This document shows positions 13,666 to 35,410 of a stretch of DNA of 64,000 nt, piece after piece. A program made the translations under genes and the position numbers. Position 1 is the stretch's first letter, and each line of letters starts with the position of its first letter. This stretch comes from Candidatus Methanoxibalbensis ujae (GTDB lineage Archaea > Halobacteriota > Syntropharchaeia > Alkanophagales > Methanospirareceae). Location: assembly GCA_026134085.1 (NCBI GenBank), contig JAOQIN010000002.1, positions 4,859 through 68,858 of the forward strand, written 5' to 3'. The notes beneath the pieces are model-generated. The model was not told where the DNA came from, did not search any database, and saw nothing but the letters and a program-made list of their open reading frames with translations.

Positions 13666-13899
13666 CTTTCAATCATCATAATCCCATCATAATCATAATC
13701 CTTATTTCTAATGATTCTCAGGCGTTTTACAGCACGCACATCAGCTGCACACAAAATACAGCGCATAATGCATTGTTAATGCATTGTGTTATTGAAGTGC
13801 TATAATGCTATAATGATACATGCTATAATGATACTTCACGAAACATCATCTTTTTATTATAAAAGAAACTTTGCTGAACCTGAGGTGACTGAGGTGATA

Positions 13900-14871
13900 A
13901 TGAGAAGCGCAGCATGTGTTTGTGTGGCAGTGATTGTTATGTCTGTGGTGTTCACATTCTGCGCAGCTGCGAACAACAATTGCCAATTATGCACAGTAGA
14001 TAATGGCGCCAATGGCGCCATGATTGGAGGTGCCGGAGCAGGTGCCGTGGCTGCCGGAGCATCGTCTGTGGAGTGGGGTATATGTGGTCCGATTGATCTC
14101 GTCATTGTCCTTGACAATACAGGAAGCATGGCAGACGCGATAGACAACATAAAGGCAGAAATGCCGGATATAATCGCAACCGCATATAATGCGTCAGGCG
14201 GCGATCTCAGGTTGGGATACATCACATTCAATGACAGCGTGTATGTGCGCAGCAACCTCACGACGAACATAAGTGCGGTTATGCACGCAATAAACACAAC
14301 TTATGCATCCGGCGGTGCCTACGCTCCTGAGGCATCTGACGAGGCGAAGAACACATCCATTAACAATCTGCCTGAGGGCATGAGACCCGATGCCACCGGA
14401 TATATGGGATATCAGTATGGAAATTTCACCACACCATACCGTCCAAACGCGACGAAGATAGTTGTGCTGATCACTGATGCTCCTCCAGGCGGATTTAATG
14501 ATACAGAAGATACGGAGGATGTAACTGCAATGCACACACATGCACTTACAGCGAGGAGCAAGGGAATTCTGGTGTGTGATGTCTTCGTTCCAACATACGG
14601 CGATTACGCAGGACAGCTCGCTATACTCAGGGATGATGCGGAGACAACTGGCGGCGCGTTCACCGTCGTGGCTTCAGATGGCAGCGGCACGGGAGCGGCA
14701 ATAAAGGAAATCATAACGAGATGCGGCAGAGCTAAGGGACCTGCAGCAGTTCCTATAATGTCATCCATCGGGATATTCGCAGTTGCTGCGATGCTTCTCA
14801 CAGTCTCAATCATATCTATCGTCAGGAACAACGGAGGCAGTGGTGGTATGCTGCGAAAACGAAAACCGTGA
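13900..14871 (+). CDS. secreted von Willebrand factor A (vWA) domain protein with C-terminal TM anchor
   Basis: Start chosen at the ATG at 13900, after a GAGGTGA. It has a signal peptide, a DLVIVLDNTGSM MIDAS motif, and a C-terminal hydrophobic helix followed by basic residues. Confidence 0.7.
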   Translation: MRSAACVCVAVIVMSVVFTFCAAANNNCQLCTVDNGANGAMIGGAGAGAVAAGASSVEWGICGPIDLVIVLDNTGSMADAIDNIKAEMPDIIATAYNASGGDLRLGYITFNDSVYVRSNLTTNISAVMHAINTTYASGGAYAPEASDEAKNTSINNLPEGMRPDATGYMGYQYGNFTTPYRPNATKIVVLITDAPPGGFNDTEDTEDVTAMHTHALTARSKGILVCDVFVPTYGDYAGQLAILRDDAETTGGAFTVVASDGSGTGAAIKEIITRCGRAKGPAAVPIMSSIGIFAVAAMLLTVSIISIVRNNGGSGGMLRKRKP

Positions 14872-15139
14872 CAGTAATTTCATCTTTGTTTTTTTTATTT
14901 CTTACTTATTTTTTGAATTGATCTCCCGCGGGATATCTCGCACGGGAGCTCAGATGTGCTCGTGAAAGCTCGATTAAAAGAATTGTTTCTGAGTATCTCC
15001 ATTGAATGGAGAGGTTCAAGGTAATTGCAAATCAGGAAACCGACAAAATCAATATCCTTTGCAGAAAGTTGGAAGTTGGATTGAGAATTGGAAATAAGTT
15101 TAAAGTGTTATGCACCTAACTATAGATCGCTGGGAAGGC

Positions 15140-15160
15140 GCTGTTGAAATGCCCAGCCCG
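15140..15160 (+). repeat. R0: half-site (right-arm box only) of the island repeat family
   Basis: GCTGTTGAAATGCCCAGCCC matches the (A)ACGTTRAGTGAAATGCCC right box of R1-R8. No left arm or inner stem is visible upstream. Confidence 0.5.
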
Positions 15161-15227
15161 CAGAATTAAGAATATGTTGCTGCTGATTCCTACATTTTCA
15201 AAGGTAGAGCAGGGTGGGTGAGAATAT

Positions 15228-15424
15228 TTATATAATATCGTCGTATTCTTCACTGCTCGCTATGCGAGCCCGCTCGCTATGCGAGCCCGATGCGAGCCCG
15301 GGTGGGGTCCGCCGAAGCCCTTCTGAGCCCGTGCCCGGAAGGCTTAAAGCCGGGTGGATGAAACGGGAACCACCCTGAAGGATGCCAAAGTGAGGGGAGG
15401 AGGTCACAGATAAGGAGGAATATC
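15228..15424 (+). promoter_or_regulatory. TATA-like box plus a ~160-nt GC-rich structured leader upstream of the first island gene
   Basis: TTTATATAA at 15228-15236. It is followed by tandem hairpins (GCTCGC-TAT-GCGAGC, twice), duplicated CCGGGTGG segments competing for one CCACCC, and an AAGGAGGA SD before the ATG at 15425. Confidence 0.3.
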
Positions 15425-15919
15425 ATGCATAAGAAAAGTATTGATCACCTGATTGGTCACATAGCATATATTGCTTTATATGTGGTATTGATAATATCCA
15501 CCGTTTTCCTTTACAATTCTGCCGATTTAGCAAAATTACTTTATGCAGGATGGATAATCCTGGTATTTGGAATCGTCTTTTTGTTGTGGTCAAGCGGATC
15601 ACGGAAGAAAGGGCGTGAAGAGGGTATTGTTGAAAGTGGAATGTATGCTTTTGTTCGCCATCCTGAGTTCCTCGGTCATATCCTGATAATTTTTGCGCTG
15701 GTTATTATTTCACAGCACTGGATCAGCCTGATTGTTGGCGCAGTCTTAATTGTTCTGCTGTGTCTTGCCATGATAGAAGAAGAAAAGAGAAATATAGAAA
15801 AGTTTGGCGATGCATACGGGGATTATATGAAAAGAGTTCCGAGAATAAATTTAATAGCAGGAATTGTTAAGCATAGCAAAAGAGAAAACGAAGATAATGA
15901 TAAAGATAAAATAAAATGA
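15425..15919 (+). CDS. isoprenylcysteine carboxyl methyltransferase (ICMT/PEMT) family membrane protein
   Basis: Multi-TM protein with a FVRHPEFLGHIL motif (family pattern RHPxYxG). Confidence 0.7.
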   Translation: MHKKSIDHLIGHIAYIALYVVLIISTVFLYNSADLAKLLYAGWIILVFGIVFLLWSSGSRKKGREEGIVESGMYAFVRHPEFLGHILIIFALVIISQHWISLIVGAVLIVLLCLAMIEEEKRNIEKFGDAYGDYMKRVPRINLIAGIVKHSKRENEDNDKDKIK

Positions 15920-15920
15920 G

Positions 15921-16045
15921 CGGACACTCTGCGGTGCTTTGACTCAGTCCTTCGGGTCACTTAACAGAGGGTATGCGGTTCGCTCCGCTCACCCAAATTT
16001 GCCCTATCGGGTGTCTTCGCATACCCGCCAAACGTTATACACAAT
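15921..16045 (+). repeat. R1: attC-like structured island repeat
   Basis: Left TCACTTAAC box, perfect 9-bp inner stem GGGTATGCG (15969-77) / CGCATACCC (16018-26), CCCAAATTTGCC loop motif, right AAACGTTATAC box. Confidence 0.75.
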
Positions 16046-16066
16046 CGGCTTTGTGAGGTGAGAAAA

Positions 16067-16214
16067 ATGGCTCAGCCCGTTATAAATTATGCACCTGAAA
16101 CTTGTGCATTTTGTGAAGGAAGTGGGGGCTGTAAATATAATTTAGGATACTATTGAAAGATGCCCTGCTTGTGGCGGAACAGGTTGGGCACATGCATTAA
16201 GACATGAAGAATAA
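16067..16214 (+). pseudogene. mini zinc-finger gene (two CxxCxGxG motifs) interrupted by a frameshift
   Basis: MAQPVINYAPETCAFCEGSGGCKYNLGYY stops at 16156. The next frame continues IERCPACGGTGWAHALRHEE to 16214. Joined, this gives a ~48-aa DnaJ-type Zn-finger-like peptide. Confidence 0.4.
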
Positions 16215-16326
16215 CTGCCGACTGCGTATAACAGCGGACATCGGCTGCGGTGCTTCGCACCTACGCCAAAATTCGGCAGAGCCGAACTTCGTATGTCCGC
16301 AAAACGTTGAGTGAAATGCCCAAGCC
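16215..16326 (+). repeat. R2: attC-like structured island repeat
   Basis: GTATAAC left box, inner stem GCGGACAT (16234-41) / ATGTCCGC (16293-300), CGCCAAAATTCGGC loop, right AAAACGTTGAGTGAAATGCCC box. Confidence 0.75.
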
Positions 16327-16361
16327 CTTTCATAAAAAAATCGCAATAGGAGGTGATAAAT

Positions 16362-16697
16362 ATGGCATTTAAAGCACTGTTCCTCGCCCATGCTCCTGAT
16401 GCAGAGGCAGAGAAGCATAGATGTGTTATTGAAACGCCCAAGTACTATAAGCTCCTTGTAGTAGTGGTAAAAAATCGGGAGCAGGCAATTGAAGTATGCA
16501 AAAAGGTTGTCAAAGAGGAGGGCATTCAGTCAATCCTTCTCTGTCCGGGATTTACACATAGAGATATTGCGGAGATATCAGAAGCGGTTGGTGAGAATGT
16601 CGGAGTTTTCGTGGCCAGAGGAGATGGTCCGAGTAACAGGATTTCAATGGAAGTGATGAGAAGAGAGGGATGGTTCTCAGAAAAAGGGAGAGAATAA
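16362..16697 (+). CDS. hypothetical small cytoplasmic protein (cassette cargo)
   Basis: ATG at 16362 after a GGAGGTG. 111 aa with an alpha/beta-like sequence. No motif was recognised. Confidence 0.5.
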   Translation: MAFKALFLAHAPDAEAEKHRCVIETPKYYKLLVVVVKNREQAIEVCKKVVKEEGIQSILLCPGFTHRDIAEISEAVGENVGVFVARGDGPSNRISMEVMRREGWFSEKGRE

Positions 16698-16740
16698 AAT
16701 TCCCTGCTCTCTTGTTTACTTTCAAGATAGGGAATGAAAG

Positions 16741-16850
16741 AGGCTTGGGCACTCTGCGGTGTTCGCAACCTTGTCCCTCGGGTCACTCTTGGGCGTAATC
16801 GGGCTCCGCTCCTTAAGCGAAGAAGGTTCGTAGATGAAAGTGATAGATGA
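16741..16850 (+). repeat. R3: degenerate attC-like island repeat
   Basis: Carries the TCTGCGGTG-TTCGCAACC-TTGTCCCTCGGGTCAC hairpin module and a GGTTCGTAGATGAAAGTGA right end. TAGATGAAAGTGA is duplicated and the inner stem is eroded. Confidence 0.6.
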
Positions 16851-16862
16851 AAGTGATAAGTC

Positions 16863-17237
16863 ATGAAAAACAAAAGTTCTGATGGAGGAGACAGGATGCA
16901 AACGTTATTGATAGTATCAGTGGCTTTTGCATTGTTTATTGTGTGTCCAAGAATGGCGGGAATGACCAATGTTATAACCAATGCCACGCAAACAAATATA
17001 ATTCATGTGGCAATTATAGGGACGATAATATCGCTTCCATTGATCATAGCAATGGTTTTGATCTTCAAGCAATATGGCTTATTTGCTGCGCTTGGCTTCT
17101 GTGTAATAACTGATTTGGGTGCTGCGTTTGTAATGAGGCAAATCAGCTTTAAAGCGGGTTTAGAAACTTTCATAATTGCTTTATTTTTAATTATTGGCGT
17201 CAAAGTTGCGTCAATAATTTCAAGCTGGTTATCATGA
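16863..17237 (+). CDS. small integral membrane protein (3-4 TM), function unknown
   Basis: 124-aa hydrophobic ORF filling the unit between R3 and R4. Confidence 0.5.
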   Translation: MKNKSSDGGDRMQTLLIVSVAFALFIVCPRMAGMTNVITNATQTNIIHVAIIGTIISLPLIIAMVLIFKQYGLFAALGFCVITDLGAAFVMRQISFKAGLETFIIALFLIIGVKVASIISSWLS

Positions 17238-17250
17238 AGATGCAGAGATC

Positions 17251-17400
17251 GAAAATCCACCGCTCCGCTCGATTTCCGTTCGCTCACGCTTCGGGACTAT
17301 CGCTCACGCCTGACGGGAGGATATGTGGCTTCACCTTCGGCTACGCCCAAATTTCGCAAAGCAAACTTCACATATTCTCGGAATGTTAAGTGAAATTGAG
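17251..17400 (+). repeat. R4: attC-like structured island repeat
   Basis: CGCTCCGCTC motif, inner stem GAGGATATGTG (17317-27) / CACATATTCTC (17369-79, 10/11), ACGCCCAAATTTCGC loop, right GGAATGTTAAGTGAAATTGAG box. Confidence 0.75.
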
Positions 17401-17467
17401 AACTTCGTGCGTAAAAATGATAAAGTATAAAAAATGAAAGTGTATCTGAAAAAAGGAGGTAAAAGAT

Positions 17468-18109
17468 ATGGTGGTGATAGGAGAGAAATTTCCGGAAATA
17501 GAGGTAAACACAACCCATGGAAGAATGAAGCTGCCGGAACAGTTCAGTGGAAAGTGGTTTGTGTTGTTCAGCCATCCTGCGGACTTCACACCGGTGTGCA
17601 CCACAGAGTTCTATGCGATGCAGAAACGCCTTGAAAAGTTCAAAGAACTCGGCGTTGAGGTTATAGGGCTCAGCGTTGATCAGGTGTTCAGCCATCTCAA
17701 GTGGATGGAGTGGATAAAGGAGAATCTGGGTGCCGAAATAGAGTTTCCGGTTATAGCGGACGACAGAGGATCCGTTGCAGAGGCTCTGGGGATGATACCC
17801 CATGGTGCGACTATAACTGCAAGAGCAGTGTTCATGGTGGACCCCAGGGGAATCATAAGGGCTATAGTCTACTATCCGGCAGAGGTCGGAAGGGACTGGG
17901 ATGAGATACTGAGAGCCCTGAAAGCACTGCAGACCAGCGATGCAAACGGTGTGGCACTGCCGCACAAGTGGCCTGAAAATGAGCTCATAGGCGACAGGGT
18001 AATAGTTCCCCCCGCGGACACAACAGACGCCATAAAGCAGAGAGAAAAGGCCAAAGCTGAGGGTGAAATAGAATGCTACGACTGGTGGTTCTGCCACAAA
18101 AAACTTTAA
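17468..18109 (+). CDS. peroxiredoxin (Prx6/1-Cys-like, archaeal thermophile type)
   Basis: [19 protein letters not shown] peroxidatic-Cys motif. The 213 aa sequence is very similar in pattern to Thermococcales/Archaeoglobus Prx. Confidence 0.9.
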
Positions 18110-18289
18110 CTCTTTTTTAATCTTTTCCGGGAAATTCTCCACAGAGCATGCCGGTGATGAACTGCGACATGCTGAGATGCTTGCGGGGAGGACAATACAA
18201 TGACACACCAATACTCAAACCGGAATATGACAGATAGTTGAGGTTCTGCATCCTGATGCAGGACAACTCGTCTGTTGTGATCAGCCGAT

Positions 18290-18543
18290 GGAATTGCTTG
18301 CAGAAAAAATTGAAGATGAAGGAATGGAAAAGTTCCAGTAGTTGAAAAAAACAGAAACAGGCGCAAGGATCAAAGTTGGTTCAATTCCACTGGAAGATAA
18401 TCATAACATGAATGGATAGAAGTAATTGCTGATGGTGTAGTTTATAGAGTCTAAAACTTGGAGATAAACCTGAGGCTGAATTTGAAATTGGAGCAGAAAA
18501 TATTAAGGCAGGAGAATACTGCAATACCCATCTGTGGAAATCA
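18290..18543 (+). pseudogene. decayed superoxide reductase (neelaredoxin-like) gene
   Basis: SOR-like fragments appear in order across three frames: GKVPVVE, IKVGSIPLEDNH, HEWIEVI and EYCNTHLWKS. Compare EKHVPVIE, VGKEIPHPNTTEHH, HHIRYIEL and SYCNIHGLWE. Stops and frameshifts lie between them. Confidence 0.45.
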
Positions 18544-18544
18544 C

Positions 18545-18690
18545 GGAGCGCCCTTCGTCCACGACTCTTCGGTTGCTCTTCAGTTGCTTCGCAACCTTGC
18601 CTTTCGGGTCATATAACAGCGGATAAAATGCTTCGCCCAAATTGCCCTCGGCAGCTTCTTTTATCCGCAAACGTTAAGTGAAATGCCCGC
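18545..18690 (+). repeat. R5: attC-like structured island repeat (best preserved)
   Basis: Double mini-hairpin module, ATATAAC box, perfect 10-bp inner stem GCGGATAAAA (18619-28) / TTTTATCCGC (18659-68), CGCCCAAATTGCCC loop, right CAAACGTTAAGTGAAATGCCC box. Confidence 0.8.
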
Positions 18691-18752
18691 CGTCTCTTTG
18701 AAAAAGAAAACATTTAAATCTGGAAAGAATTTAAAGAAAGGAAGTGATAAAA

Positions 18753-20927
18753 ATGAGGGGAAAGGCTTCCAAGCCAGGGAAAAGATGGATAACCGATTAC
18801 TGGCCGAACAGGCTAAATTTAAAAATTTTGAGGCAAAAATGTCCGAGTTCCAATCCCTATGGGCCTTACTACGACTATTTGAAAGAGGTTCAAGAGCTTG
18901 ATGTTGATTCTGTTATAAAAGATTTAAAGGAGCTTATGAGAAAATCGCAGGACTGGTGGCCTGCCGACTTTGGGCATTATGGTCCTCTTTTCATAAGACT
19001 TGCCTGGCACAGCGCTGGCAGCTACAGGATTTTTGATGGAAGAGGGGGGGCGAGGGATGGAAGTATACGCTTTCCTCCCAGGATCAACTGGCCCGATAAC
19101 ATCGGCCTTGACAGAGCTATAAGGCTTCTTTGGCCGATAAAGAAGAAGTATGGAAGGAAGCTCTCATGGGCAGATCTGATAATTCTTGCCGGAACGGTTG
19201 CGCTGGAAGACATGGGCGTGAGGATTATCGGTTTCTCTCTGGGAAGGGAGGACATATATGAGCCAGATGAGAGCCCGGACTGGGGTCCAGAGGAGGAAAT
19301 GCTTACAGCCAAGGAGCGTTTTTCTGAGGAGGGAAAGCTTAGAGAGCCTTATTCCGCCACAGAGATGGGGCTCATCTATGTTAACCCCGCAGGACCTGGA
19401 GGAGTTCCCGACCCAAGGGCATCGGCTCGGGAGATAAGGGCTGTTTTCGGTAGTATGGGGATGAACGACGAGGATACCGTGGCTTTAATTGCTGGAGGGC
19501 ATTCCTTTGGGAAGTGTCACGGAGCAGCCCCGGAAAAATATCTTGGCCCCGATCCGACCTCTTCACCGTTGGAGTCTCAGGGGCTGGGCTGGAAGTTTGA
19601 ATACAAGACAGGAAAGGGGCCCGACACCTTTACTTCTGGCTTTGAACTTGCCTGGTCTCCCACCCCCACAAAGTTCGGAATGGGTTATCTCAAAATGCTC
19701 TTTGATTACGATTATGAGATAGAAACCAGCCCCGCAGGAAAACCCCAGTGGGTTGCCAAAGATGCACCGGAAATCATACCAGATGCCCACGATCCAGAGA
19801 AAAAGCACAAACCCAGAATGCTTACCGCTGATTTAGCTTTAAAGTATGATGAGAAATATGCTGAGATAGCCGGGAGATTCTTGGAGAGCCCGGAAGAATT
19901 TGAAAAGGCTTTTGCAAGGGCATGGTTCAAACTTACCCACAGAGATATGGGGCCCAAAGGGTGGCACATGGGTCATTATGTTCCAAAGGAAGACTTCATC
20001 TGGCTTGATCCACTGCCGGAAAGAGATTACGATCTTATTGACGATAGCGATATTGAAGAATTGAAAAAGAGGATCCTGGCTTCAGGATTGAGTGTTTCCC
20101 AGCTGGTATATACAGCATGGTCTTCTGCTGCAAGTTACAGGCATTCCGACAGAAGAGGAGGGGCAAACGGAGCCAGAATAAGACTTTATCCGATGAATGA
20201 ATGGGAGGTCAACCATCCGGAAGATTTGAAGAAAATAATCAGGGTTTACGAAAAAATCCAGAGGGAGTTCAAAGAAGAGCAGGAAAGAAAAGGGAGCAGA
20301 AAAAGGGCATCTATAGCTGATCTCATTGTTCTCGGAGGTTGCGCTGCAATAGAAAAAGCCGCCAGTGATGCTGGTATAAACGTAAAGGTTCCATTCGCTC
20401 CCGGAAGGGTGGATGCGTCGCAGGAGCAGGTTGAGGTTGAATTCCACAAAAAAATAGAGCCGTTTGCTGACGGATTCAGAAACTACTTCAGATATCCGGA
20501 AACTATTAACGAGGAGGACATTTACACCACTCCCGAGTATTTCCTCGTTGATAAAGCACAGTTATTACAGCTTGCTGTGCCTGAAATGGTGGTTCTCCTT
20601 GGCGGGCTGAGGGCACTTGGAGCGGTTTACAGTTATGAAAGATACGGCGTTCTTACAGATAAGCCTGAAACACTTACCAACGATTTCTTTGTAAACCTGC
20701 TTGATACAGAATGGAGGCAGGCTGATGATTATCGTTATATCTTTGAGGGCTATGACAGAAAAACTGGAGAGCTAAGATGGAAAGCAACACGAGTTGACCT
20801 GATTTTCGGGCATCATGATGAGCTGAGGGCCGTGGCAGAGGTTTATGCATCCGATGATGCAAAAGAGAAATTCGTTAAGGATTTCGTAGCAGCATGGGAC
20901 AGGGTTATGAATCTGGACAGGATTTGA
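18753..20927 (+). CDS. katG: catalase-peroxidase
   Basis: [11 protein letters not shown] and other KatG hallmark blocks, with a two-lobed ~725 aa architecture. ATG at 18753 after a GGAAGTGA. Confidence 0.95.
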
Positions 20928-20958
20928 TTATGGAGGGAGCAAAATGATGCAAATTTTT

Positions 20959-21088
20959 CGGCGACGGCGGACATTCTTTGGTGCTTCGCACCTTGCCCTT
21001 CGGGTCACAGAGGGTATACGGTTCTCTCACCCCAATGTTCGGCTCCACCTGGCACTTCGCATACTCTGCATTAGGCGAAACGGCGGGT
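20959..21088 (+). repeat. R6: attC-like island repeat (TTAAC box deleted)
   Basis: GGTGCTTCGCACC and GCCCTTCGGGT hairpins, inner stem GGGTATACG/CGCATAC, right end GCATTAGGCGAAAC. Confidence 0.7.
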
Positions 21089-21091
21089 AAA

Positions 21092-23049
21092 ATGGTAAAG
21101 TTGAGAGAATTTCAAGAAAATGCAAAAGATAACCTTGTAAAAGGAAACTCCACTGTTGTTATAGCTCCAACTGGATCAGGAAAAACTCTTGCAGCTATTA
21201 TGCCTTTTAAGGATTTCAGTAGCACAAAATTGAGTAGAGTTATATATGCTCTTCCAATAAGAGCACTTGCAAAAGGTGTCCAAGAGGAATTCAAGAGTTT
21301 TAATATAAAATGTTCATCATGGTGACGAGCCAGAGAGCAAATGGTTCACGGAAAGAGCAATAATTACCACCGTGGATCAATATTTCACGGCGTTTGCAGG
21401 AGCGCCACTCTCTTGGAGTTCTGCAACGGGTCATGCAGCAGCTGGAGCTGCTTTAGCGAGTTACACGGTTTTTGATGAAATACATCTGCTAAATCCCGAA
21501 AACGGACTACAGCTGTTGTTTGCCGTTCTGAAATTACGAAACAGATGGAACCTACCCACAACAGTTATGACTGCCACACTACCCAATTCTGTGATAAATT
21601 CTCTCGAAATTAAATGTGGACTGGTAAAAATTGAGGCATCAGAAAAAGAGGAGATAGAGACTGCTGGAGAGACGTCAGTTTAAAGTTGCATGATGCGGAA
21701 CTGAACATTGATGAATTGGTAACGTTTGTCAAATGGCGTTGGAAAAACTATGGAAAAGTTATCGTTTTTGTTAATACTGTGGAGAGAGCAATAAGTCTCT
21801 ATACAAAGCTAAAAGAGGATAGTGGATTAAGAGATAAAATTTTGCTTGCGCATTCGAGATTTTCCAAAAAGGACAGAAAAAGAAAGGAAGAAGAAATTCA
21901 TTTGAAGTTTGGAAGAAATTCGGATTTTGAAGGCATACTTATCACCACTCAAGTAGCTGAAGCTGGACTTAACATATCGGCGCCATTGGTAATAACCGAA
22001 CTTGCACCGATGGATTCACTCATACAGCGTGCAGGAAGGTGTGCAAGATTTAGAGAGATTAATAAAGTTAAGGGCGAAGTTATAGTTGTGAAGCCTAAAG
22101 TTGAAAATGGTAGGTGGTACGCTCCGTATTTCGATTACATCCGCCTGAGGAAAGGTGGGAGTGGAACTAATAAGAATGACGCATTTATCAAAAATAAAGA
22201 ACGGATTACACTTTCCGAATTAACGTGGGTGGTTCTTCTTGAGAAAGCAAAAACTGATATAACTTTAAATTGGAATACAGAAAAAGAGCTTCTTAATCTC
22301 TCTTTGGACTATGCATATTCTGCATTTATAAACGGCTCAGATATAATCTACTTCAAGGATCAGATTAAGGACGAGGAAATAGGAGAGATAGTTGAACAAT
22401 ACAAAGACGAATTAAGAGGTGGGTAAAAGTGCCATTAACTATAAGTGAAGCTATTGGCATATTTGAACGGGCATTCCGTGTAAGAGACCCGAATGAGATC
22501 GAGCGAGTGCTCAGAGAAAATCTAAATGTGCAAGTTGCAGTCATAGATTCAAAAGAGACTGCGGAGAACAGGATTAATGAAGGTTATTACCCTCTTACTG
22601 TTAGAGTTCCCTACTGGATTTTTGTATCAAAAGTAAAAGAAAAAGAGTTAAATGTGTATTCTCTGGAGCAGGAGAATATCATCTCAGAGGAAAGCAAAAA
22701 ATGGAAATTAGAGGAAATATATAATGAGATCCTGCCAAACAGAACATATTTTATTTTAAAAAATAAAGCAGGTTATCACCCACATTTGGGTCTGACTTTT
22801 GAGGGAGATGGTGAGGTTACAGGTTTTGAAAAAATAGGAGAAGGTGAAAAAGCTGAGAAGTTTGTAGCGGGAAGAGAACAAACATGGGAAAAGCATGCGG
22901 TGGGCACTTTAGGTAGAGCTAATAGGATATTAAAAATTTACAGGCCGTTTCTAACGGATTGGGCTAAGAATGTATTTTCCGCTCAAAATCTAAATTTGTT
23001 GATTCTGAAGAGGGATCAGGTACTGTTGGAGATAGAAAATGCAGAGTAA
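21092..23049 (+). pseudogene. Cas3-type SF2 (DExH) helicase without HD domain, broken into 3-4 ORF pieces
   Basis: Motif I APTGSGKT, Ia YALPIRA, II DEIH, III TATLP, V TTQVAEAGLNIS and VI QRAGRCAR. The reading frame shifts near 21305, near 21660 and at 22426/22429. Confidence 0.6.
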
Positions 23050-23195
23050 GAGAATAAGCAAATCCCATTCCTTCAGCAGAGTTGGACTCTATTCCCCCAT
23101 TCAGAAATAATAACAGCTTTTTAATGATCAGACTTCTATCGTTACTAAGCTGATTCACCGGAATACTCTCCTACCCATTGCAACTCAACACAAAA

Positions 23196-23774
23196 TTAAA
23201 AATTTACATCGGTCACGGTTACAGGAAACCCCGTCTTTCTTAACATATCTAATACCTCAGCGTATGCTGCATCCTCCGTAATATCTTTATAGCCTCCAGG
23301 AAGAACGATAAAGCGATAGCTTTTCCTCTCTGTATCAACTGTTACCTCGATGATATTGGCTTTTGCAATAATCATGTGCACCTCTCTCCTTTTAATCCCT
23401 AAACGAATTATATTTTTGTAGGATACAACCGTACAGTTTCTGGAAAACTTTCTCCCAAGCATTTCGGCCAACCTATCAAGATTTATGCTTGAATCTATAA
23501 TGGAATATATGTACTTTCTAAACTCCTCAGAGCTTTTGGGTAATTGCTTAAATAACTCTTTCAACTTTTTTCGCGATATTGGAAATACCTCCTCCAAACC
23601 TTTCAGCCCACAAACATCCTTCAAAATTAAAATGCCAGTATCGGTCACCAGAAGGAGATTTAGGTACTGTATTTCAAAAATTCCAAAACTCTTAACAGCC
23701 GAAAGAGGAATGACTCCCAAAATCTCAACTCGCATCTTCTTAACTCCTCCCGGCTTGGAATCCATCACCACCAA
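23196..23774 (-). CDS. hypothetical cytoplasmic protein (last unit of the minus sub-array)
   Basis: 192-aa ORF in AT-rich DNA with no recognisable motif. The start could be the internal MRVEILG. Confidence 0.45.
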   Translation of the reverse strand: MVVMDSKPGGVKKMRVEILGVIPLSAVKSFGIFEIQYLNLLLVTDTGILILKDVCGLKGLEEVFPISRKKLKELFKQLPKSSEEFRKYIYSIIDSSINLDRLAEMLGRKFSRNCTVVSYKNIIRLGIKRREVHMIIAKANIIEVTVDTERKSYRFIVLPGGYKDITEDAAYAEVLDMLRKTGFPVTVTDVNF

Positions 23775-23931
23775 GCATCTTTATCAGAAATTTTCTCCTT
23801 TCACAATCTATGCGATTTCAGATGCAGTGTAACGTACTGTCAGGTCGTTTATTTGTTTCGTGGTTTTCATCCCTTTTTCATATCGTGAATTTCCAGTATA
23901 AATATCTTTTCAAATCGCAAAGCGACAGGGC

Positions 23932-24070
23932 ATTTCACAGCGTTCTGGGGATATGAGAGGTTTGCGGAGCGAAGCGGAGCAAATTTGGGCGTAGCAAATC
24001 GAAGCCACATATCCGCCTGTTGTCCGAGTGCGACAGGCACCAAATTGCGTAGCAATTTGAGTTGCAAGCC
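23932..24070 (-). repeat. R7: attC-like structured island repeat (minus orientation)
   Basis: Read on the minus strand: GCAATTT-[GGTGCCTGTCGCACT]-CGGACAAC-AG-GCGGATATGTGG...ACGCCCAAATTTGC...CATATCCCC-AGAACGCTGTGAAATGCCC. Confidence 0.75.
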
Positions 24071-24071
24071 A

Positions 24072-24671
24072 TTAAAAAATATTGGTTTTAATGAGATTTG
24101 ACTCATACCAAACCTCATCTTTGTTCTCATGCTCCCATCTTAACAAAAGACCAGTTTGCCTGTCATACCATCCCGTCCACCTGTTATTTCCAAATTCGGC
24201 TTTTAAGACGTAAGCTTCACGTTCGTAGCCGCTGACTTTAACAGAGCTAATATTCACGATTCTATATTCCTCCTCATCTCCTTTACATTCGTAAAGTTTT
24301 ATCGTATCGCCTATTGAAAGATCGGTTGGTATCCAGAGATGGAAATAGTAGCTTTTAAATGGTGGTCTTATAAAAAGATTCGTGATATTTTGTCCATCTG
24401 TAATCGCTTTCAGTAGCTTTCGAGATTTGATGTCTACATAAAGCGTATCATTTCGGAGCCAGTTGTGTTTAATCACAACCTTATTATATGAGACAGAAAG
24501 GATTTTATACTTGTCCACATAACGATCTTGAACAAAAAAGACGTTGTAGACGTCGTATTTTGCATAGGTCCCGGGTTTCAGCCAAGAGATCTCTTGATGA
24601 GGAAGTATGTTAAATACAACAACTGCTGATAAGATTATTATTCCAATAGTTATTAAATTTTTCCAGTTCAT
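24072..24671 (-). CDS. hypothetical protein with N-terminal TM/signal anchor
   Basis: 199 aa with an MNWKNLITIGIIILSAVVVF anchor followed by a beta-rich extracytoplasmic-looking domain. Confidence 0.5.
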   Translation of the reverse strand: MNWKNLITIGIIILSAVVVFNILPHQEISWLKPGTYAKYDVYNVFFVQDRYVDKYKILSVSYNKVVIKHNWLRNDTLYVDIKSRKLLKAITDGQNITNLFIRPPFKSYYFHLWIPTDLSIGDTIKLYECKGDEEEYRIVNISSVKVSGYEREAYVLKAEFGNNRWTGWYDRQTGLLLRWEHENKDEVWYESNLIKTNIF

Positions 24672-24717
24672 TTTGTTCCCTCAAATTTGGCTTTTTTAAT
24701 ACCTTTCTTACGAGAAT

Positions 24718-24840
24718 GTTTGCAATTTCGGACAACTTTACGGAGATATGTGAAGTTTCGCTTTGCGAGATTTGGATAAGTGTAAGCGAGCTACATATCC
24801 TCCTGTTGTCCGAGTGCGTAAGCACCGAAGCAAACAGAAA
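24718..24840 (-). repeat. R8: attC-like structured island repeat (minus orientation)
   Basis: Read on the minus strand: GGTGCTTACGCACT-CGGACAAC-AG-GAGGATATGT...ACATATCTCC-GTAAAGTTGTCCGAAATTGC. The inner stem is nearly identical to that of R4. Confidence 0.75.
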
Positions 24841-25526
24841 GTTACCCAAAGTCCCATTTTATTTGCCTCTTTAAGCCTTTCTATTTCCTTTCTTATATCT
24901 TCAATCACTTCTGGATTATAAATTTCTTTTTTATTGTCTTTTTTGATTGAAAATACAATAAATACTTTCCCACCAAAATTTTCCTCAAATTTCTTATGTG
25001 TCCTGCCAAGCCATTCCTTCCATCTGTAAATCTCCGGAGTTTGTTCATAGGTTATAGGTTTTATTTGCAAACCAATATATTTATTTCCAATCTGAATATA
25101 AAAGTCAACATTGTAAACCCTATCCCATTCATCAGGAGCAGGTTTTACCTCAACACCCAGATCTCTCTGTAATTTCCCATATATTGTTTTTATTTCCGTT
25201 AGATAGCCATCATAGGTTCTGTTAATTATGAGGTTGTGAATATATTGGATACAATCTTCTTCCGTCACTTCCTCAATTTCTGCCTGAATAACTTCTGTAA
25301 TTTTTATATATAATTTTCTACCCAAATCTTCAATATACTCTTTGGGAGTCAAGGAAATACCTTTGCTTTTGAGAAAATCACCAAGCTTTTTGTAATAAAA
25401 GTCTTCCCAATCTTCAATTGTTTTAGGGCTACATTCTCGTATCCATTGAGATACTGGTCCAACACTGTCTTTCTTATTCAATCCCCATCTGTTCGTTGCC
25501 ATGTTTAATATCCATTCTTTTGCCAT
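24738..25526 (-). CDS. putative type II restriction endonuclease (possibly MjaI-like; tentative)
   Basis: Sits 4 bp downstream of the methyltransferase. It has a PD-(D/E)xK-like NVDFYIQIGNKYIGLQIKP. About the last 33 codons read through repeat R8. Confidence 0.5.
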   Translation of the reverse strand: MAKEWILNMATNRWGLNKKDSVGPVSQWIRECSPKTIEDWEDFYYKKLGDFLKSKGISLTPKEYIEDLGRKLYIKITEVIQAEIEEVTEEDCIQYIHNLIINRTYDGYLTEIKTIYGKLQRDLGVEVKPAPDEWDRVYNVDFYIQIGNKYIGLQIKPITYEQTPEIYRWKEWLGRTHKKFEENFGGKVFIVFSIKKDNKKEIYNPEVIEDIRKEIERLKEANKMGLWVTFCLLRCLRTRTTGGYVARLHLSKSRKAKLHISP

Positions 25527-25530
25527 TATT

Positions 25531-26769
25531 TCACCTTTTTTCTAATTCAATAAATTTTGCTTTGTATTTATAATCCTTTATTGTATCTGCCTCAGCCATT
25601 CCAGATTTTATTAAATAGGCATTCACAAAAATTTTATTTTTTAAATAAACATAGGCGCTCACTGTATTTTCATCCGAGACTGATCCATTATCAAACTTAA
25701 GATAAACCTCTTTTTTCAGAATACGATTATGCAAATATTCCGATGCTTTTTCTTTATCAATTATTTTAACGCCCAAAAACTTGACAAGTAGACCAGTATC
25801 CAATTTAATAGTTTGCTCATCTATAATATCAATAACCTTGTAAAGTCTATCCTTTTTAAAATTAAATTTTTTAGGATCTATTTTGGGTTTGGCATCTTTA
25901 ATCCTTGGAACATAGCTAATTTTATCAACTTTTATTGGTGTTTGACGTTTTATTATCTGAATGTTTTCACTGAATTGCGACAAGCTTTGTTTTAGTCCAA
26001 GTTTTTCTTTTATTATTTCTAAAAACTTTTCGTTTATTTCATAACCTATTGCATTTCTTCGCAGATTTAAAGCCTCCTTTACTGTTGTCCCGCTTCCAAG
26101 GAAGGGATCAAGAACTGTATCATCTACGAATGTATACATTTTTATCAGTCTTTTTGGTAGTTCTTCGGGGAACATAGCTTCATGTTCTATCTGCTTTGCT
26201 CCACCAAAATACCAGTGTCCGTAGAAGTATTCTTTCCACTCTTCCTTGGTCAATTTTGAGTTCTCTTTGATTTCCTTTGGGACTTTTTCACTTTTTCCCG
26301 GTTTTTTGAAGATAAGTATAAATTCATAGTCAATTTCAATCATTCCATTTGGAGGATAGGGATATGAGCCCATTACATTTGCTCCTCCAGTTGTGTTCAT
26401 CGTGGTTTTCTTCTGCCAGATTATTGAACCCATATAATCAAAACCAATGTCCTCGCATTGAGCTATAAACTCAGCATGCAGTGGTATAACTTTGTATCTG
26501 CCGTAAATTATAGAACGGGCGAATTGATCTCCTATGTTTATACATAACCTCCGCCCAGGTTTAAGGACACGGTAACATTCCTTCCAGACTCTGTATAAAT
26601 CTTTCAAATATTCATGTAAGCTTTGTCCATAACCAATCTGCCCAGGAACTCCGTAATCTTTAATGTGCCAGTAAGGGGGAGAGGTGACAACCAAGTCTAT
26701 ACTGTTGTTTTTGATTTCTGTCATTTTTCGGCTATCACCGATTATTATTTTCGCCCAGTTGTTCATCAT
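25531..26769 (-). CDS. beta-class DNA methyltransferase (SPPY: N4-cytosine or N6-adenine) with C-terminal SNase/OB-like extension
   Basis: Motif IV TSPPYW precedes motif I DPFLGSGTT, which is the beta-class order. The C-terminal ~140 aa follows the thermonuclease fold pattern. Confidence 0.85.
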   Translation of the reverse strand: MMNNWAKIIIGDSRKMTEIKNNSIDLVVTSPPYWHIKDYGVPGQIGYGQSLHEYLKDLYRVWKECYRVLKPGRRLCINIGDQFARSIIYGRYKVIPLHAEFIAQCEDIGFDYMGSIIWQKKTTMNTTGGANVMGSYPYPPNGMIEIDYEFILIFKKPGKSEKVPKEIKENSKLTKEEWKEYFYGHWYFGGAKQIEHEAMFPEELPKRLIKMYTFVDDTVLDPFLGSGTTVKEALNLRRNAIGYEINEKFLEIIKEKLGLKQSLSQFSENIQIIKRQTPIKVDKISYVPRIKDAKPKIDPKKFNFKKDRLYKVIDIIDEQTIKLDTGLLVKFLGVKIIDKEKASEYLHNRILKKEVYLKFDNGSVSDENTVSAYVYLKNKIFVNAYLIKSGMAEADTIKDYKYKAKFIELEKR

Positions 26770-26808: not shown

Positions 26809-26875
26809 GGGGCTTCGGGCGATTTCAGACAACGAAAGTTTTGCGCAGGGCGAGCATAGGAGAGCCGCATATGAA
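26809..26875 (-). repeat. R9: partial (right-arm) island repeat at the outer edge of the minus sub-array
   Basis: Read on the minus strand: GCGCAAAACTTTCGTTGTCTGAAATCGCCCGAAGCCCC. This matches the right box of R8/R2 but has no complete left arm. Confidence 0.55.
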
Positions 26876-34983: not shown

Positions 34984-35250
34984 GAGTGAGGGTAGTAAGC
35001 CCCCTTCTGTTTCAGGTGGCATTTATCTATGCGCCACAAATGGCTTGCACCCACGGGGATGGTCGTTCCATCCGGAGCCATGCAACCTCATCCTTTCGGA
35101 ATCACCGTGCACGCATGGTCCGGTATCGTTTCTGCGCCAGAGCCAGGGCTCTCACCCTGTGCCTTTCGGCACCCGTGTTCATGCGGTGGGGGGACTTTCC
35201 TCAGCCCCTCTTCATCAATATCTGAGGGACCGGCAGCCACCCTCCCTCTC
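34984..35250 (-). ncRNA. rnpB: RNase P RNA (archaeal)
   Basis: The minus strand reads ...GGGUGGCUGCCGG-(P3 hairpin CCCUC..GAGGG)-CUGAGGAAAGUCCCCCC (CR-I) ... AUAGAUAAAUGCCACCUGAAACAGAAGGGGGCUUACUACCCUC (CR-IV/V). The ends are approximate. Confidence 0.8.
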
Positions 35251-35292
35251 TCCATCCTCTTTCTCTCTTCTTCTCTTATTTTCTTATTTTCT

Positions 35293-35410
35293 CTGATCTT
35301 ATTTGATTTTATCTGATTTTCTTTGATCTTATTTGATCCTATTTGATCCTCTTCGCTTTTCTTTGATCTTCTTTGATATGGATATGATAGATATGATTCG
35401 TTGATTCGTT
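35293..35410. repeat. about 11 tandem degenerate 10-bp units (YTGATYYTMT) with strict 10-bp phasing
   Basis: ctgatcttat ttgattttat ctgattttct ttgatcttat ttgatcctat ttgatcctct ... ttgatcttct ttgatatgga. The array lies between the ftsZ stop and the RNase P RNA 5' end. Confidence 0.7.

Follow-up and report, generated by a model that had tools for sequence, protein, structure and literature searches.

Cassette arrays with long cognate-stem sites in the chromosome of Candidatus Methanoxibalbensis ujae: a probable integron-like system in an archaeon

We analysed 64,000 nucleotides of Candidatus Methanoxibalbensis ujae (assembly GCA_026134085.1, contig JAOQIN010000002.1, positions 4,859 to 68,858), hereafter the window, which contains an island of small gene units separated by hairpin-forming repeats. 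We propose, with a probability of roughly 0.8, that this island is made up of mobile cassettes of an integron-like system, ordered in two convergent arrays and carried on the chromosome of an archaeon related to ANME-1 (anaerobic methanotrophic archaea, group 1) and Syntropharchaeia. This reading is carried by the anatomy of the repeats, by covariation between the two ends of the same cassette, by the energetic advantage of joining these ends in a circle, by the mobility of cassettes and, in related loci, by the linkage of arrays to a recombinase gene and an attI-like site. The system works like an integron but fails two of its defining features, namely the additional domain of the integrase IntI and the extrahelical bases of the sites.

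The window is archaeal in its gene content, with aminoacyl-tRNA synthetases, FtsZ and F420-related genes (Pfam), and its phenylalanyl-tRNA synthetase beta subunit is 60–64% identical to counterparts from Methanophagales/ANME-1, Methanospirareceae and Alkanophagales. The island spans ~11.7 kb (arrays at 15.1–26.85 kb) between a VWA-domain gene (13786–14871) and a Hef helicase-nuclease gene (27175–29685), and its G+C content drops to 0.34–0.38 at 22–26 kb compared with 0.45–0.50 in the flanks. Its units hold one or two genes and are set apart by repeats of 80–150 nt. On the plus strand they encode, in this order, an ICMT-like methyltransferase, a tiny unit, a DUF6506 protein, a small membrane protein, a 1-Cys peroxiredoxin, the catalase-peroxidase KatG and a frameshifted Cas3-like helicase; the array converging on it from the minus strand contains an MjaI-type restriction-modification pair and two function-unassigned proteins. 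A covariance model of the sites, described below, found six strong sites and a weak one in the window, all within 15.9–24.8 kb and spaced by 0.2–2.4 kb: five on the plus strand (four strong, and the weak R6) and two on the minus strand. Rfam gave no match inside the arrays, no tRNA genes were found in the window, a generic direct-repeat finder run on the whole window missed the sites, which are too divergent, and short motif searches there returned chance-level results. In what follows, sites are numbered R on the plus and M on the minus strand, and a prime marks the GTT box at the right end of a site, with which the next cassette starts.

The central observation concerns the left arm of each site, which an initial annotation of this DNA had described as complementary to the start of its own cassette and not to the box at its own right end. 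We scored eight cassette starts of the window against eight left arms, allowing one long insertion. The six cognate pairs that can be defined (R0'->R1, R1'->R2, R2'->R3, R5'->R6, M0'->M1 and M1'->M2) are all maxima of their rows, and the cognate assignment is the single best among 20,160 possible ones (p=5e-5). The pairing is hence real, while its extension to every repeat was too strong a statement, R4'->R5 being an exception; R3->R4 is undefined because R3 is truncated, and R0'->R1 amounts to family-level similarity only. In an unbiased scan, where the reverse complement of each cassette start was run against both strands of the whole window, the cognate left arm was the top same-strand match for R2'. 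The same scan added two boundary boxes that had not been listed before, R0' at 15143 and M0' at 26833 (minus strand), and found no cognate partner for R4' or M2' anywhere in the window.

Three of the four pairings originally read by eye are found exactly where they had been placed: 16034–16049 with 16217–16232 (14/16), 16316–16331 with 16736–16752 (with one extra base) and 18683–18694 with 20963–20974 (11/12). The fourth, on the minus strand, holds in part. Its sequences exist, but 10 nt away from the positions given (GTTGTCCG at 24019–24026 and AAATTGC at 24042–24048, while 24029–24036 reads TGCGACAG), and its first half pairs, whereas in the predicted fold of M2 the AAATTGC half probably belongs to an internal hairpin, since CAAATTGC-tac-GCAATTTG forms one inside a 32-nt module at this place. 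The true second partner probably lies farther left, in the register of the family, with the A/G position at +11; in the predicted circularised fold, the start GTTGTCCGA...TTGCAA pairs with TCGGACAAC and with TTGCAAC at 24061–24068. As had also been claimed, the right box of R2 (GTTGAGT...) fails to pair with the left arm of R2, scoring 18 compared with 22 for the cognate start. The sequences that pair in the second and third examples (ATGCCC followed by AAGCCC... and by GCCGTC..., respectively) recur in many unrelated genomes, so that these two examples alone are weak evidence and the case rests on a larger data set.

A scan for AAACGTTRAGTGAAATGCCC in one genome per species revealed the same box behind similar hairpins in six very different lineages (Thermodesulfatator, an Archaeoglobaceae metagenome-assembled genome (MAG), a Methanosarcinales MAG, Dehalococcoidia, Omnitrophota and WOR-3), where the bases 3' of the box recur as well, as GCCGTCGC or AAGCCCGCC, the ones pairing in the third and the second example, respectively. 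With this box we collected 120 metagenome loci. A home-made regular expression for AAC...GTT hairpins was too permissive (316 matches), and a covariance model built from 54 seed sites was used instead, which located 244 sites in 127 loci and the window (loci carry numbers prefixed by L). Ninety-six non-redundant cassettes are bounded by two consecutive sites on the same strand. Each cassette was read from the G of the upstream GTT and compared in register with the downstream site's left arm, taken as its reverse complement. Identity at +5 to +7 amounts to 0.69–0.80 for cognates, compared with 0.27–0.51 for own right ends or random partners; at +11 it is 0.07, and at +13 to +16 it is elevated. 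With insertions optimised alike for cognates and controls, at least 12 of 15 extension positions match in 24 of the 96 cognates (25%), in 0.9% of 8,602 non-cognate pairs from the same family and in none of 94 own right ends (Wilcoxon p ~1e-12 for cognate vs non-cognate, ~7e-11 for cognate vs own right end). Own-cassette pairing thus surpasses both non-cognate pairing and pairing with the own right end, in the window and across the 96 cassettes.

These numbers bear on the simplest alternative, in which the matches are nothing but conserved repeat sequence shared by all sites, the cognates are coincidences of subfamily, and no circles ever existed. A shared repeat is indeed present, as GTTAAGTGAAATGCCC followed by GCCGTCGC or AAGCCCGCC occurs in Thermodesulfatator, Archaeoglobaceae, Dehalococcoidia, Omnitrophota and many metagenome contigs, and both R4' and R5' are better partners for the left arm of R1 than R0' is. 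However, the controls come from the same family and share its subfamilies, and a rate of 0.9% among them compared with 25% among cognates indicates that the matches are not merely shared repeat sequence. Moreover, 16 distinct extension sequences are represented among the 24 strong cognates, every one complemented by its own left arm, and pairs of the simpler site class defined below, for example GTTATACGCCAGAACTA and GTTATACGCCGGAACTA, occur in their own cassettes only. We regard this alternative as extremely improbable.

The sites follow a fixed architecture. Counted from the G of GTT, the outer stem consists of GTT, six variable bases, A, a usually mismatched position +11, T at +12 and then 5–14 cassette-specific pairs; cassette positions 1–10 read GTTNNNNNNA. 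Complementarity therefore extends beyond the 7-bp core, as had been noticed, over 9–19 bp instead of the 12–16 bp first estimated. In class I sites such as R2, pairing is contiguous to about +16/+17. Class II sites, of which there are many, have an extra 26–40 nt in the left strand, placed between +9 and +10 and typically reading ...CTGCGGTGCTTCGCACCTTGCCCTTCGGG... with two small hairpins (the hairpin insert of the initial annotation), after which pairing resumes and reaches about +24 to +26, with 14/15 matches beyond the insert in L040, L052, L062, L070, L072 and L107. At +11 the cassette start has A and the left arm C in 37 of 55 well-paired cases, an A.C on the top strand that becomes a G.T wobble on the bottom strand; mismatches away from +11 have no strand bias (42 top-strand G.T vs 46 A.C). 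AAC and GTT are invariant or near-invariant in the 54 seed sites. The inner, or L, stem is bulge-free and 10–14 bp long, shows compensatory changes at nine of nine pairs, and is set off inside the R stem by an asymmetric spacer of ~1 nt vs ~5 nt. An uninterrupted L helix of at least 8 bp is present in 122 of 179 distinct sites (68%) and of at least 10 bp in 96; about half of the 122 well-stemmed sites have the commonest spacers, of 1 nt (5') and 5 nt (3'), and spacers of 4 nt and 7 nt rank next. A motif in the loop, CGCCCAAATT, is conserved.

Bases from +5 onwards covary with the downstream site, while the 3' spacer and L' belong to the upstream site, which places the exchange between the two, at or next to GTT. 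Some sites have ATT for GTT at the crossover box (R6, at 21070–21079, ATTAGGCGAA, and loci among L011, L013, L014, L075, L104 and L109), and some left arms in the same group (window/L011, L013, L014, L075, L104, L109) read AAT or GAC for AAC. No covariation of these changes is seen between cognate ends, as would be expected of a box whose G is part of the upstream site and whose TT is part of the cassette. Directly 3' of the right arm of the stem, a recurrent leader is seen at 18700–18745 and in many other loci, e.g. ...CCTTGGAAAGATTTAAA... or ...AAAATTAAAAATCAGG...; since it resembles archaeal promoter elements (transcription factor B recognition element, BRE, and TATA box), promoters may travel with the cassettes. 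Bacterial hosts have these leaders too.

Conceptual circularisation, the check suggested by the initial annotation, was carried out for 100 non-redundant cassettes with DNA energy parameters. Sites completed by their own cassette start fold with a mean energy of -25.7 (top strand) and -29.2 kcal/mol (bottom strand), compared with -21.0 and -23.0 kcal/mol in array context and -21.0 and -23.4 kcal/mol with mismatched partners, i.e. about 5–6 kcal/mol better (all p<1e-11). The circularised bottom strand is more stable than the top strand by 3.5 kcal/mol (p=7e-17). Within the window, the cognate join is the better one for R2, where both arms pair (-25.5 top / -34.2 bottom vs -22.7 / -25.8 kcal/mol in array context), for M2 (-28.2 / -32.6 vs -23.4 / -24.7 kcal/mol) and for R6 (bottom strand, -25.5 vs -13.4 kcal/mol), and for R1 on the bottom strand only.

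Pairing between the two ends of a unit might equally act in RNA, the ends of a cassette transcript joining for mRNA stability, circularisation or termination without any DNA recombination. The arms do sit at both ends of each gene unit, the hairpin-rich 3' regions could serve as terminators, and long stems would aid RNA stability in a thermophile. Yet in many cassettes BRE/TATA-like sequences (e.g. GAAAAGATTTAAA, read by eye) lie 3' of the right-hand arm, so that the cassette's own transcript would start after the arm. Furthermore, the A.C at +11 (37/55) falls in the sense strand, where it is unfavourable in RNA, and the G.T wobble in the antisense strand; it is the bottom DNA strand that folds better, and neither the occurrence of one cassette in many arrays nor the recombinase genes and attI-like sites heading arrays, described next, would be explained. 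Pairing at the RNA level is thus very unlikely to account for the data.

Cassettes have moved between arrays. The DUF6506 cassette of the window (16306 to ~16735) recurs at 90–98% identity over ~430 nt in at least eight loci, where the 160 nt upstream are unrelated beyond family-level site similarity. The site that follows this cassette is degenerate in most loci examined (L012, L014, L022, L028, L031, L032, L095 and the window): what remains is the left-arm extension and the first hairpin, while R''/L'' have been lost or changed, to the greatest extent in L014, L022, L028, L095 and the window. Despite this degenerate site, the cassette is found in many arrays.

Clustering of all large open reading frames (ORFs) in the loci failed to reveal a recombinase, whereas a search with a tyrosine-recombinase motif did, yielding genes upstream of arrays and on the same strand in L001 (frameshifted), L037/L120, L062 and L091. 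Directly 3' of the recombinase gene lies an attI-like region, made up of one or two palindromes ATATCCGAAC-N4-GTTCGGATAT and then gaacgaGTTAKRCG. Recombinase, palindromes and gaacgaGTT together head arrays in nine loci (L001, L037, L062, L091, L128, L130, L134, L135 and L137), and among homologues taken from protein databases, every context with downstream sequence has model-positive sites after the following genes. These contexts comprise Desulfurobacterium atlanticum (L128, with a TaqI-like restriction-modification cassette), Methanoperedenaceae GB37 (L130), a Methanotrichaceae MAG (L134, three cassettes, two of them restriction-modification systems), L135 and a bacterial contig (L137, with AccI restriction-modification, PDDEXK and NucS-like cassettes). 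In four of five complete heads (L128, L134, L135 and L137), the cassette next to the attI-like site is cognate to its own site, and in L130 it is partially so; in L128, the start GTTATATGACATTCCGCCCCGAAGCC pairs with a left arm formed by GGCTTCGGGGCGGAACG, 37 nt and TCATATAAC. That the first cassette obeys the cognate rule suggests that exchange in the attI-like site takes place at its GTT. Altogether, pairing, folding, mobile cassettes and array heads support the earlier suggestion that the units were once circles, as in integrons.

The cargo of the recombinase-headed arrays in L128, L134 and L137 is mostly restriction-modification and defence: TaqI-, AlwI-, Bpu10I- and AccI-type systems, PDDEXK_4 and NucS-like proteins. 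Further defence genes encode an OLD/AAA ATPase in L091 and an MjaI-type system and a Cas3-like helicase in the window, whose plus array adds the oxidative-stress genes for peroxiredoxin and KatG. A Logan assembly (L129) holds another version of the recombinase-headed locus of L128, and the two diverge 3' of the site, where one version has a peroxiredoxin gene and the other an unrelated 205-aa ORF.

Units with arms at both ends also invite comparison with small transposons, either MITE-like (miniature inverted-repeat transposable elements) or of the IS200/IS605 kind, each unit being moved by a transposase acting on terminal inverted repeats. Formally, the units are flanked by inverted repeats of 16–26 bp, and hairpin-rich ends are known from IS200/IS605 and repetitive extragenic palindromes (REPs). 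Against this, no transposase of any kind is encoded in or beside the arrays of the window, including the HUH (Y1) transposase of IS200/IS605 or TnpA(REP) elements, and related arrays are linked to a tyrosine recombinase; units abut exactly at a shared GTT without target-site duplication and have a large hairpin at one end only; and the arrays are unidirectional, with a tyrosine recombinase and an attI-like site at the head of nine independent ones. A transposon origin of the units is therefore highly improbable.

The recombinase itself is a probable relative of IntI. The enzyme of L091 (379 aa) passes NF040815, 'site-specific tyrosine recombinase/integron integrase', with 237.6 bits (cut-off 220) and fails TIGR02249 with 217 bits (cut-off 265); NCBI names the recombinases according to the former model. 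Five database homologues give the same pattern of scores, with 212–233 bits for TIGR02249, and for NF040815 the range is 217–248 bits, L091 and four of the five reaching the cut-off and P0051 (216.8 bits) staying just under it. The best match of L091 among solved structures is VchIntIA (IntI4, 2A3V; E=2e-45), with E-values of 2e-45 to 2e-47 for the array-linked recombinases. The alignment covers the N-terminal SAM-like and the catalytic domain, with the motifs HxLRHSFATHLL, GHxxxxTTxIYTHV and C-terminal SPL conserved. However, the alignment of L091 skips IntI4 residues 184–240, for which the query has 15 residues, and that of P0051 skips 186–250 wholly; the additional domain at residues ~184–250, which contacts the extrahelical bases of attC, is thus replaced by 0–15 residues. 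The recombinases carry an N-terminal extra region of ~85–105 aa and are transcribed towards the array. Hosts of the site family include ANME-1 relatives, Archaeoglobaceae, Methanoperedenaceae and Methanotrichaceae among archaea and Thermodesulfatator, Desulfurobacterium, Dehalococcoidia, Omnitrophota and WOR-3 among bacteria.

With these elements, we propose the following mechanism. A cassette would begin with the TT of one GTT box and end with the G of the following box, and would hold at its 3' end a recombination site that forms an imperfect hairpin of ~80–130 nt. This site would be complete only in the circle, where the first 16–26 bases of the cassette fold onto the left arm and thereby lengthen the AAC/GTT ('R') stem. 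As long as a cassette sits in an array, the next cassette would supply the right strand of this outer stem, which is why the left arm of a site mismatches the box at its own right end. A recombinase related to IntI and lacking the IntI-specific domain would excise cassettes as circles and insert them at the attI-like site, cutting at G|TT. Its substrate would be a folded single strand, probably the bottom one, with position +11 (A.C top, G.T bottom) and the asymmetric spacer as strand discriminators. The long stem would stabilise the hairpin in the excised circle and is plausibly an adaptation to hot habitats; hot-spring samples are among the sources of the loci, and Thermodesulfatator, Desulfurobacterium, Archaeoglobaceae and Alkanophagales are thermophilic hosts.

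In integrons, the inverse core of a site has long been known to match the core with which the same cassette starts at its 5' end. The present system shares with them unidirectional arrays of mostly single-gene units with imperfect-hairpin sites in between, AAC/GTT triplets at the hairpin base, R and L stems with an unpaired spacer, a boundary at GTT after which the bases pair with the inverse core of the own cassette's site, a bottom strand that folds better than the top strand, a first cassette that abuts an attI-like site beside a tyrosine recombinase gene, and recombinase-less clusters. By the usual definitions, though, an integron-like behaviour of the cassettes does not make this a classical integron. 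The sites do form an imperfect hairpin with R and L boxes (RYYYAAC / GTTRRRY), but an IntI with the additional domain around patch III is missing, the window having no recombinase and the enzyme of the related loci lacking the region equivalent to IntI4 ~184–250. The R stem is 16–26 bp long compared with 7 bp in attC, usually with A.C/G.T at +11; as a small control, two cassettes of a class 1 array match at 7/7 core positions and then 2/8 (dfrA1) and at 6/7 and then 5/8 (aadA1). Further differences are the optional two-hairpin module in the left strand, the conserved loop motif and the asymmetric spacer. Finally, canonical attC sites have an extrahelical G and T in the L arm ~6 bp apart and a central spacer of 5–6 nt in each arm (PMC5027507), whereas the sites here are without canonical extrahelical bases, their L stem being bulge-free over 8–14 bp in 68% of sites. 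Sites of this kind would fit an enzyme that lacks the domain reading such bases.

VCR-like attC sites (the Vibrio cholerae repeats) are likewise long (~120 bp), strongly conserved within the family and found in chromosomal arrays of accessory genes, but VCR-type families are described as lineage-restricted, whereas the family here spans archaea and bacteria. The archaeal recombinase XerA, which is not known to be followed by cassette arrays, acts on a short double-stranded dif site to resolve chromosome dimers; the recombinases described here head arrays of cassettes with hairpin sites, occur in bacteria too (Desulfurobacterium, L137) and carry an N-terminal extension. Xer/dif modules have 28-bp sites (two 11-bp arms and a 6-bp spacer) in alternating orientation, compared with hairpins of 80–130 nt in direct orientation here.

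Integrons and integrase-less attC clusters (CALINs) have been reported from Archaea by Ghaly et al. 2022, whose list includes an ANME-1 MAG with seven attCs and one IntI and an Archaeoglobaceae MAG (PMC9668308). The archaeal IntIs of that study carry the additional domain, and archaeal attCs were recombined by bacterial IntI1 (PMC9668308). This makes it conceivable that the sites are ordinary attC sites on which a canonical IntI from another part of the genome acts, the domain-less recombinase being a bystander such as a Xer-type resolvase; the AAC/GTT boxes, the R/L layout and the array organisation all fit. The window itself, with at least two sites less than 4 kb apart and no integrase nearby, would qualify as a CALIN, provided that its sites count as attC-like. 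What speaks against a bystander is the position of the recombinase at the head of the array, before an attI-like GTT site, in nine independent loci and in both domains of life, together with sites that are devoid of the extrahelical bases read by the additional domain of IntI and so match a domain-less enzyme. We thus consider service by a canonical IntI unlikely. In the literature searched, we found no description of the long cognate stem, the inserted module or an array-heading IntI relative without the domain, which is no proof of novelty.

Returning to two convergent arrays of an integron-like system as the preferred reading, several results weigh against it. Neither a tyrosine recombinase gene or remnant (Pfam on ORFs of at least 150 aa; tblastn with the L091 recombinase) nor an attI-like palindrome (palindrome search) was found in the 64-kb window. 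The start of cassette 5 is not complementary to the left arm of R5, site 1 -> site 2 of L134 breaks the cognate rule as well, and in about half of the 96 pairs pairing is confined to the R box. The cognate join does not fold better for R5 or M1, in the latter case because the right box of M1 has the same core. The seed pattern AACGTTRAGTGAAATGCCC used to collect loci skews the sample to one right-box type. Among the 127 loci, no contig with terminal overlaps represents an excised circle, and none of 192 sites has a cognate right flank of its own. Gene neighbourhood is the sole link between recombinase and sites. The exact bond cleaved, presumably G|TT, and the strand recombined are assigned by analogy with integrons; with GTT invariant, covariation narrows the exchange to the stretch between the 3' spacer and +5. 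The arrays of the window would depend on a recombinase encoded elsewhere, or be fossil. In part they may be fossil, since there is no recombinase in the 64 kb, R3 is truncated, R6 lacks TTAAC and has ATT for GTT, and R4–R5 is non-cognate.

The first plus-strand cassette begins at the R0' box, GTTGAAATGCCCAGCCCGCAG (15143–15163), a probable and degenerate 5' boundary that the unbiased scan returned among relatives of right boxes; the left arm of R1 is the best partner in its row, with a weak score of 18. A non-coding stretch of 550 nt 5' of the first cassette (14872–15424) holds two direct repeats gctcgctatgcgagccc, a partial third copy and G+C-rich hairpins; it has no Rfam match and is not attI-like. 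Cassette 1 encodes a 164-aa membrane methyltransferase-like protein (ICMT/PEMT/DUF1295 by Pfam; 15425–15919) and is followed by site R1 at 15920–16043 (covariance-model match at 15953–16043, 59.2 bits), which comprises in order the left-arm extension GCGGACACT, the two-hairpin module, R'' TCACTTAAC, the L stem, a loop with CCCAAATTT, the spacer and R' GTTATAC (G at 16034). The start of cassette 2, GTTATACACAATCGGC (16034–16049), deviates from the left arm of R2 at +8 and at the usually mismatched +11. The R1–R2 cassette of 272 nt has only a tiny ORF (16068–16157, ~29 aa) with CxxC...C motifs read by eye, and could encode a small zinc-ribbon peptide or be an ORF-less cassette.

Site R2 (16217–16315; match at 16220–16315, 74.3 bits) is of class I, its left arm without module, and consists of GCCGACTGC-GTATAAC, the L stem GCGGACAT/ATGTCCGC and R' GTTGAGT (G at 16306). 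Cassette 3 starts with GTTGAGTGAAATGCCCAAGCCCTTTCAT (16306–16333), which pairs with 16734–16752 as its top same-strand match in the whole window (score 30), and encodes a DUF6506 protein (16353–16697; PF20116, E=6e-24). Site R3 (16734–16830) was recognised by reading the sequence and was missed by the covariance model; it keeps the left-arm extension ATGAAAGAGGCTTGGGCAC and the module and has lost R'', the L stem and the GTT box. Cassette 4, with a 124-aa small membrane protein that has no family match (16863–17237), ends in site R4 at 17240–17394 (match at 17302–17394, 71.2 bits), where R'' is degenerate (CCTGAC) and R' reads GTTAAGT (G at 17385). A metagenome contig (L035, Ga0209410_1008120) is 94–100% identical to the window at 16.1–18.7 kb, including R2, the DUF6506 cassette, R3, R4 and R5, which indicates that a public metagenome includes this strain or a sister of it.

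Cassette 5 encodes the 1-Cys peroxiredoxin (17468–18109; AhpC-TSA and 1-cysPrx_C by Pfam). Of the ~430 nt of non-coding sequence 3' of this gene (18110–18540), a GGACAAC...GTTGTGA motif near 18258–18285 is possibly the remnant of a lost site; if so, this loss would be why R4'->R5 is non-cognate. Site R5 (18540–18682; match at 18605–18682, 70.6 bits) has the module, R'' TCATATAAC, the L stem GCGGATAAAA/TTTTATCCGC and R' GTTAAGT (G at 18673). Cassette 6 starts with GTTAAGTGAAATGCCCGCCGTC (18673–18694), whose row maximum is R6, and encodes KatG (18744–20927; Pfam peroxidase in two stretches, E=5.5e-65). Site R6 (20963–21079; match at 20996–21079, 26.7 bits) is degenerate: the left-arm extension GACGGCGGACAT and the module are kept, TTAAC is gone from R'', and in the right box an A replaces the G at 21070. 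The last plus-strand unit (21071–23049) contains the frameshifted Cas3-like DEAD/DEAH helicase, with DEAD and Cas3-like_C_2 matches on separate ORFs, and a 206-aa ORF; no terminal site was found for it.

The minus-strand array is headed by the M0' box GTTGTCTGAAATCGCCCGAAGCCCC (26809–26833), which is only the right half of a site. It pairs in the family register with the left arm of M1, GGGACTTTGGGTAACTTTC, all mismatches being transitions. Minus cassette 1 (24738–26769) carries the MjaI-type restriction-modification pair, with an N6_N4 methylase at 25531–26769 and RE_MjaI at 24738–25526 (Pfam). The RE_MjaI ORF runs through the entire M1 site to a TAA stop in the spacer just 5' of GTT. Since its Pfam match stops at residue 182 of 262, the final ~80 codons are probably a spurious extension across M1. 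Site M1 (24727–24855; match at 24727–24817, 63 bits) is composed of a left-arm extension at 24855–24837, a one-hairpin module, R'' CGGACAAC, the L stem and R' GTTGTCC (G at 24736). Minus cassette 2 starts with GTTGTCCGAAATTGCAAAC (24718–24736), which pairs with TCGGACAAC at 24019–24027, and encodes a 199-aa protein without family match (24072–24671). Site M2 (23934–24070; match at 23934–24031, 61.7 bits) has the left-arm extension GGCTTGCAACT, the 32-nt module with the hairpin mentioned above and a second one, GTGC-ctgtc-GCAC, then TCGGACAAC as R'', the L stem and the right box GCTGTGAAATGCCC (G at 23941). The last minus-strand unit, for which no terminal site was found, encodes a 192-aa protein without family match (23196–23774).

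Outside the island, the sole Rfam match of the window is an archaeal RNase P RNA (34984–35252); between its gene and ftsZ lie ~10 tandem copies of a 10-nt unit (TTATTTGATC-like, 35279–35378). A giant ORF of 4,404 aa on the minus strand (39483–52697) contains internal 34-nt repeat families and probably encodes a large repetitive surface protein.

Beyond the window, the data raise the possibility, to which we give somewhat short of even odds, of a sister lineage of integrons that has gone unrecognised as its integrase fails the IntI definition, and that mediates cassette capture across the domains in thermophilic and hydrothermal archaea and bacteria. Its domain-less recombinase would read a different hairpin grammar, composed of a cognate stem of 16–26 bp, the discriminator at +11, the asymmetric spacer and an optional branch module, and would shuffle mainly restriction-modification, defence and stress genes. 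Such a system could represent the ancestral Xer-like state that gave rise to IntI and attC.

The definition of integrons hinges on the additional domain by which IntI reads the extrahelical bases of attC, the textbook case of structure-specific recombination of single-stranded DNA. The cognate-stem rule is a practical tool, as it makes cassette boundaries, fusions and losses readable from sequence, and in the window it flags the R4–R5 unit as rearranged. If the sister-lineage reading is true, it would show how much of the integron mechanism can be dispensed with or replaced, and would provide a candidate integrase for arrays of archaea and thermophiles that are now filed as integrase-less, including many archaeal CALINs. 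One family of sites common to archaea and bacteria would then constitute a direct cross-domain route for restriction-modification, defence and oxidative-stress genes.

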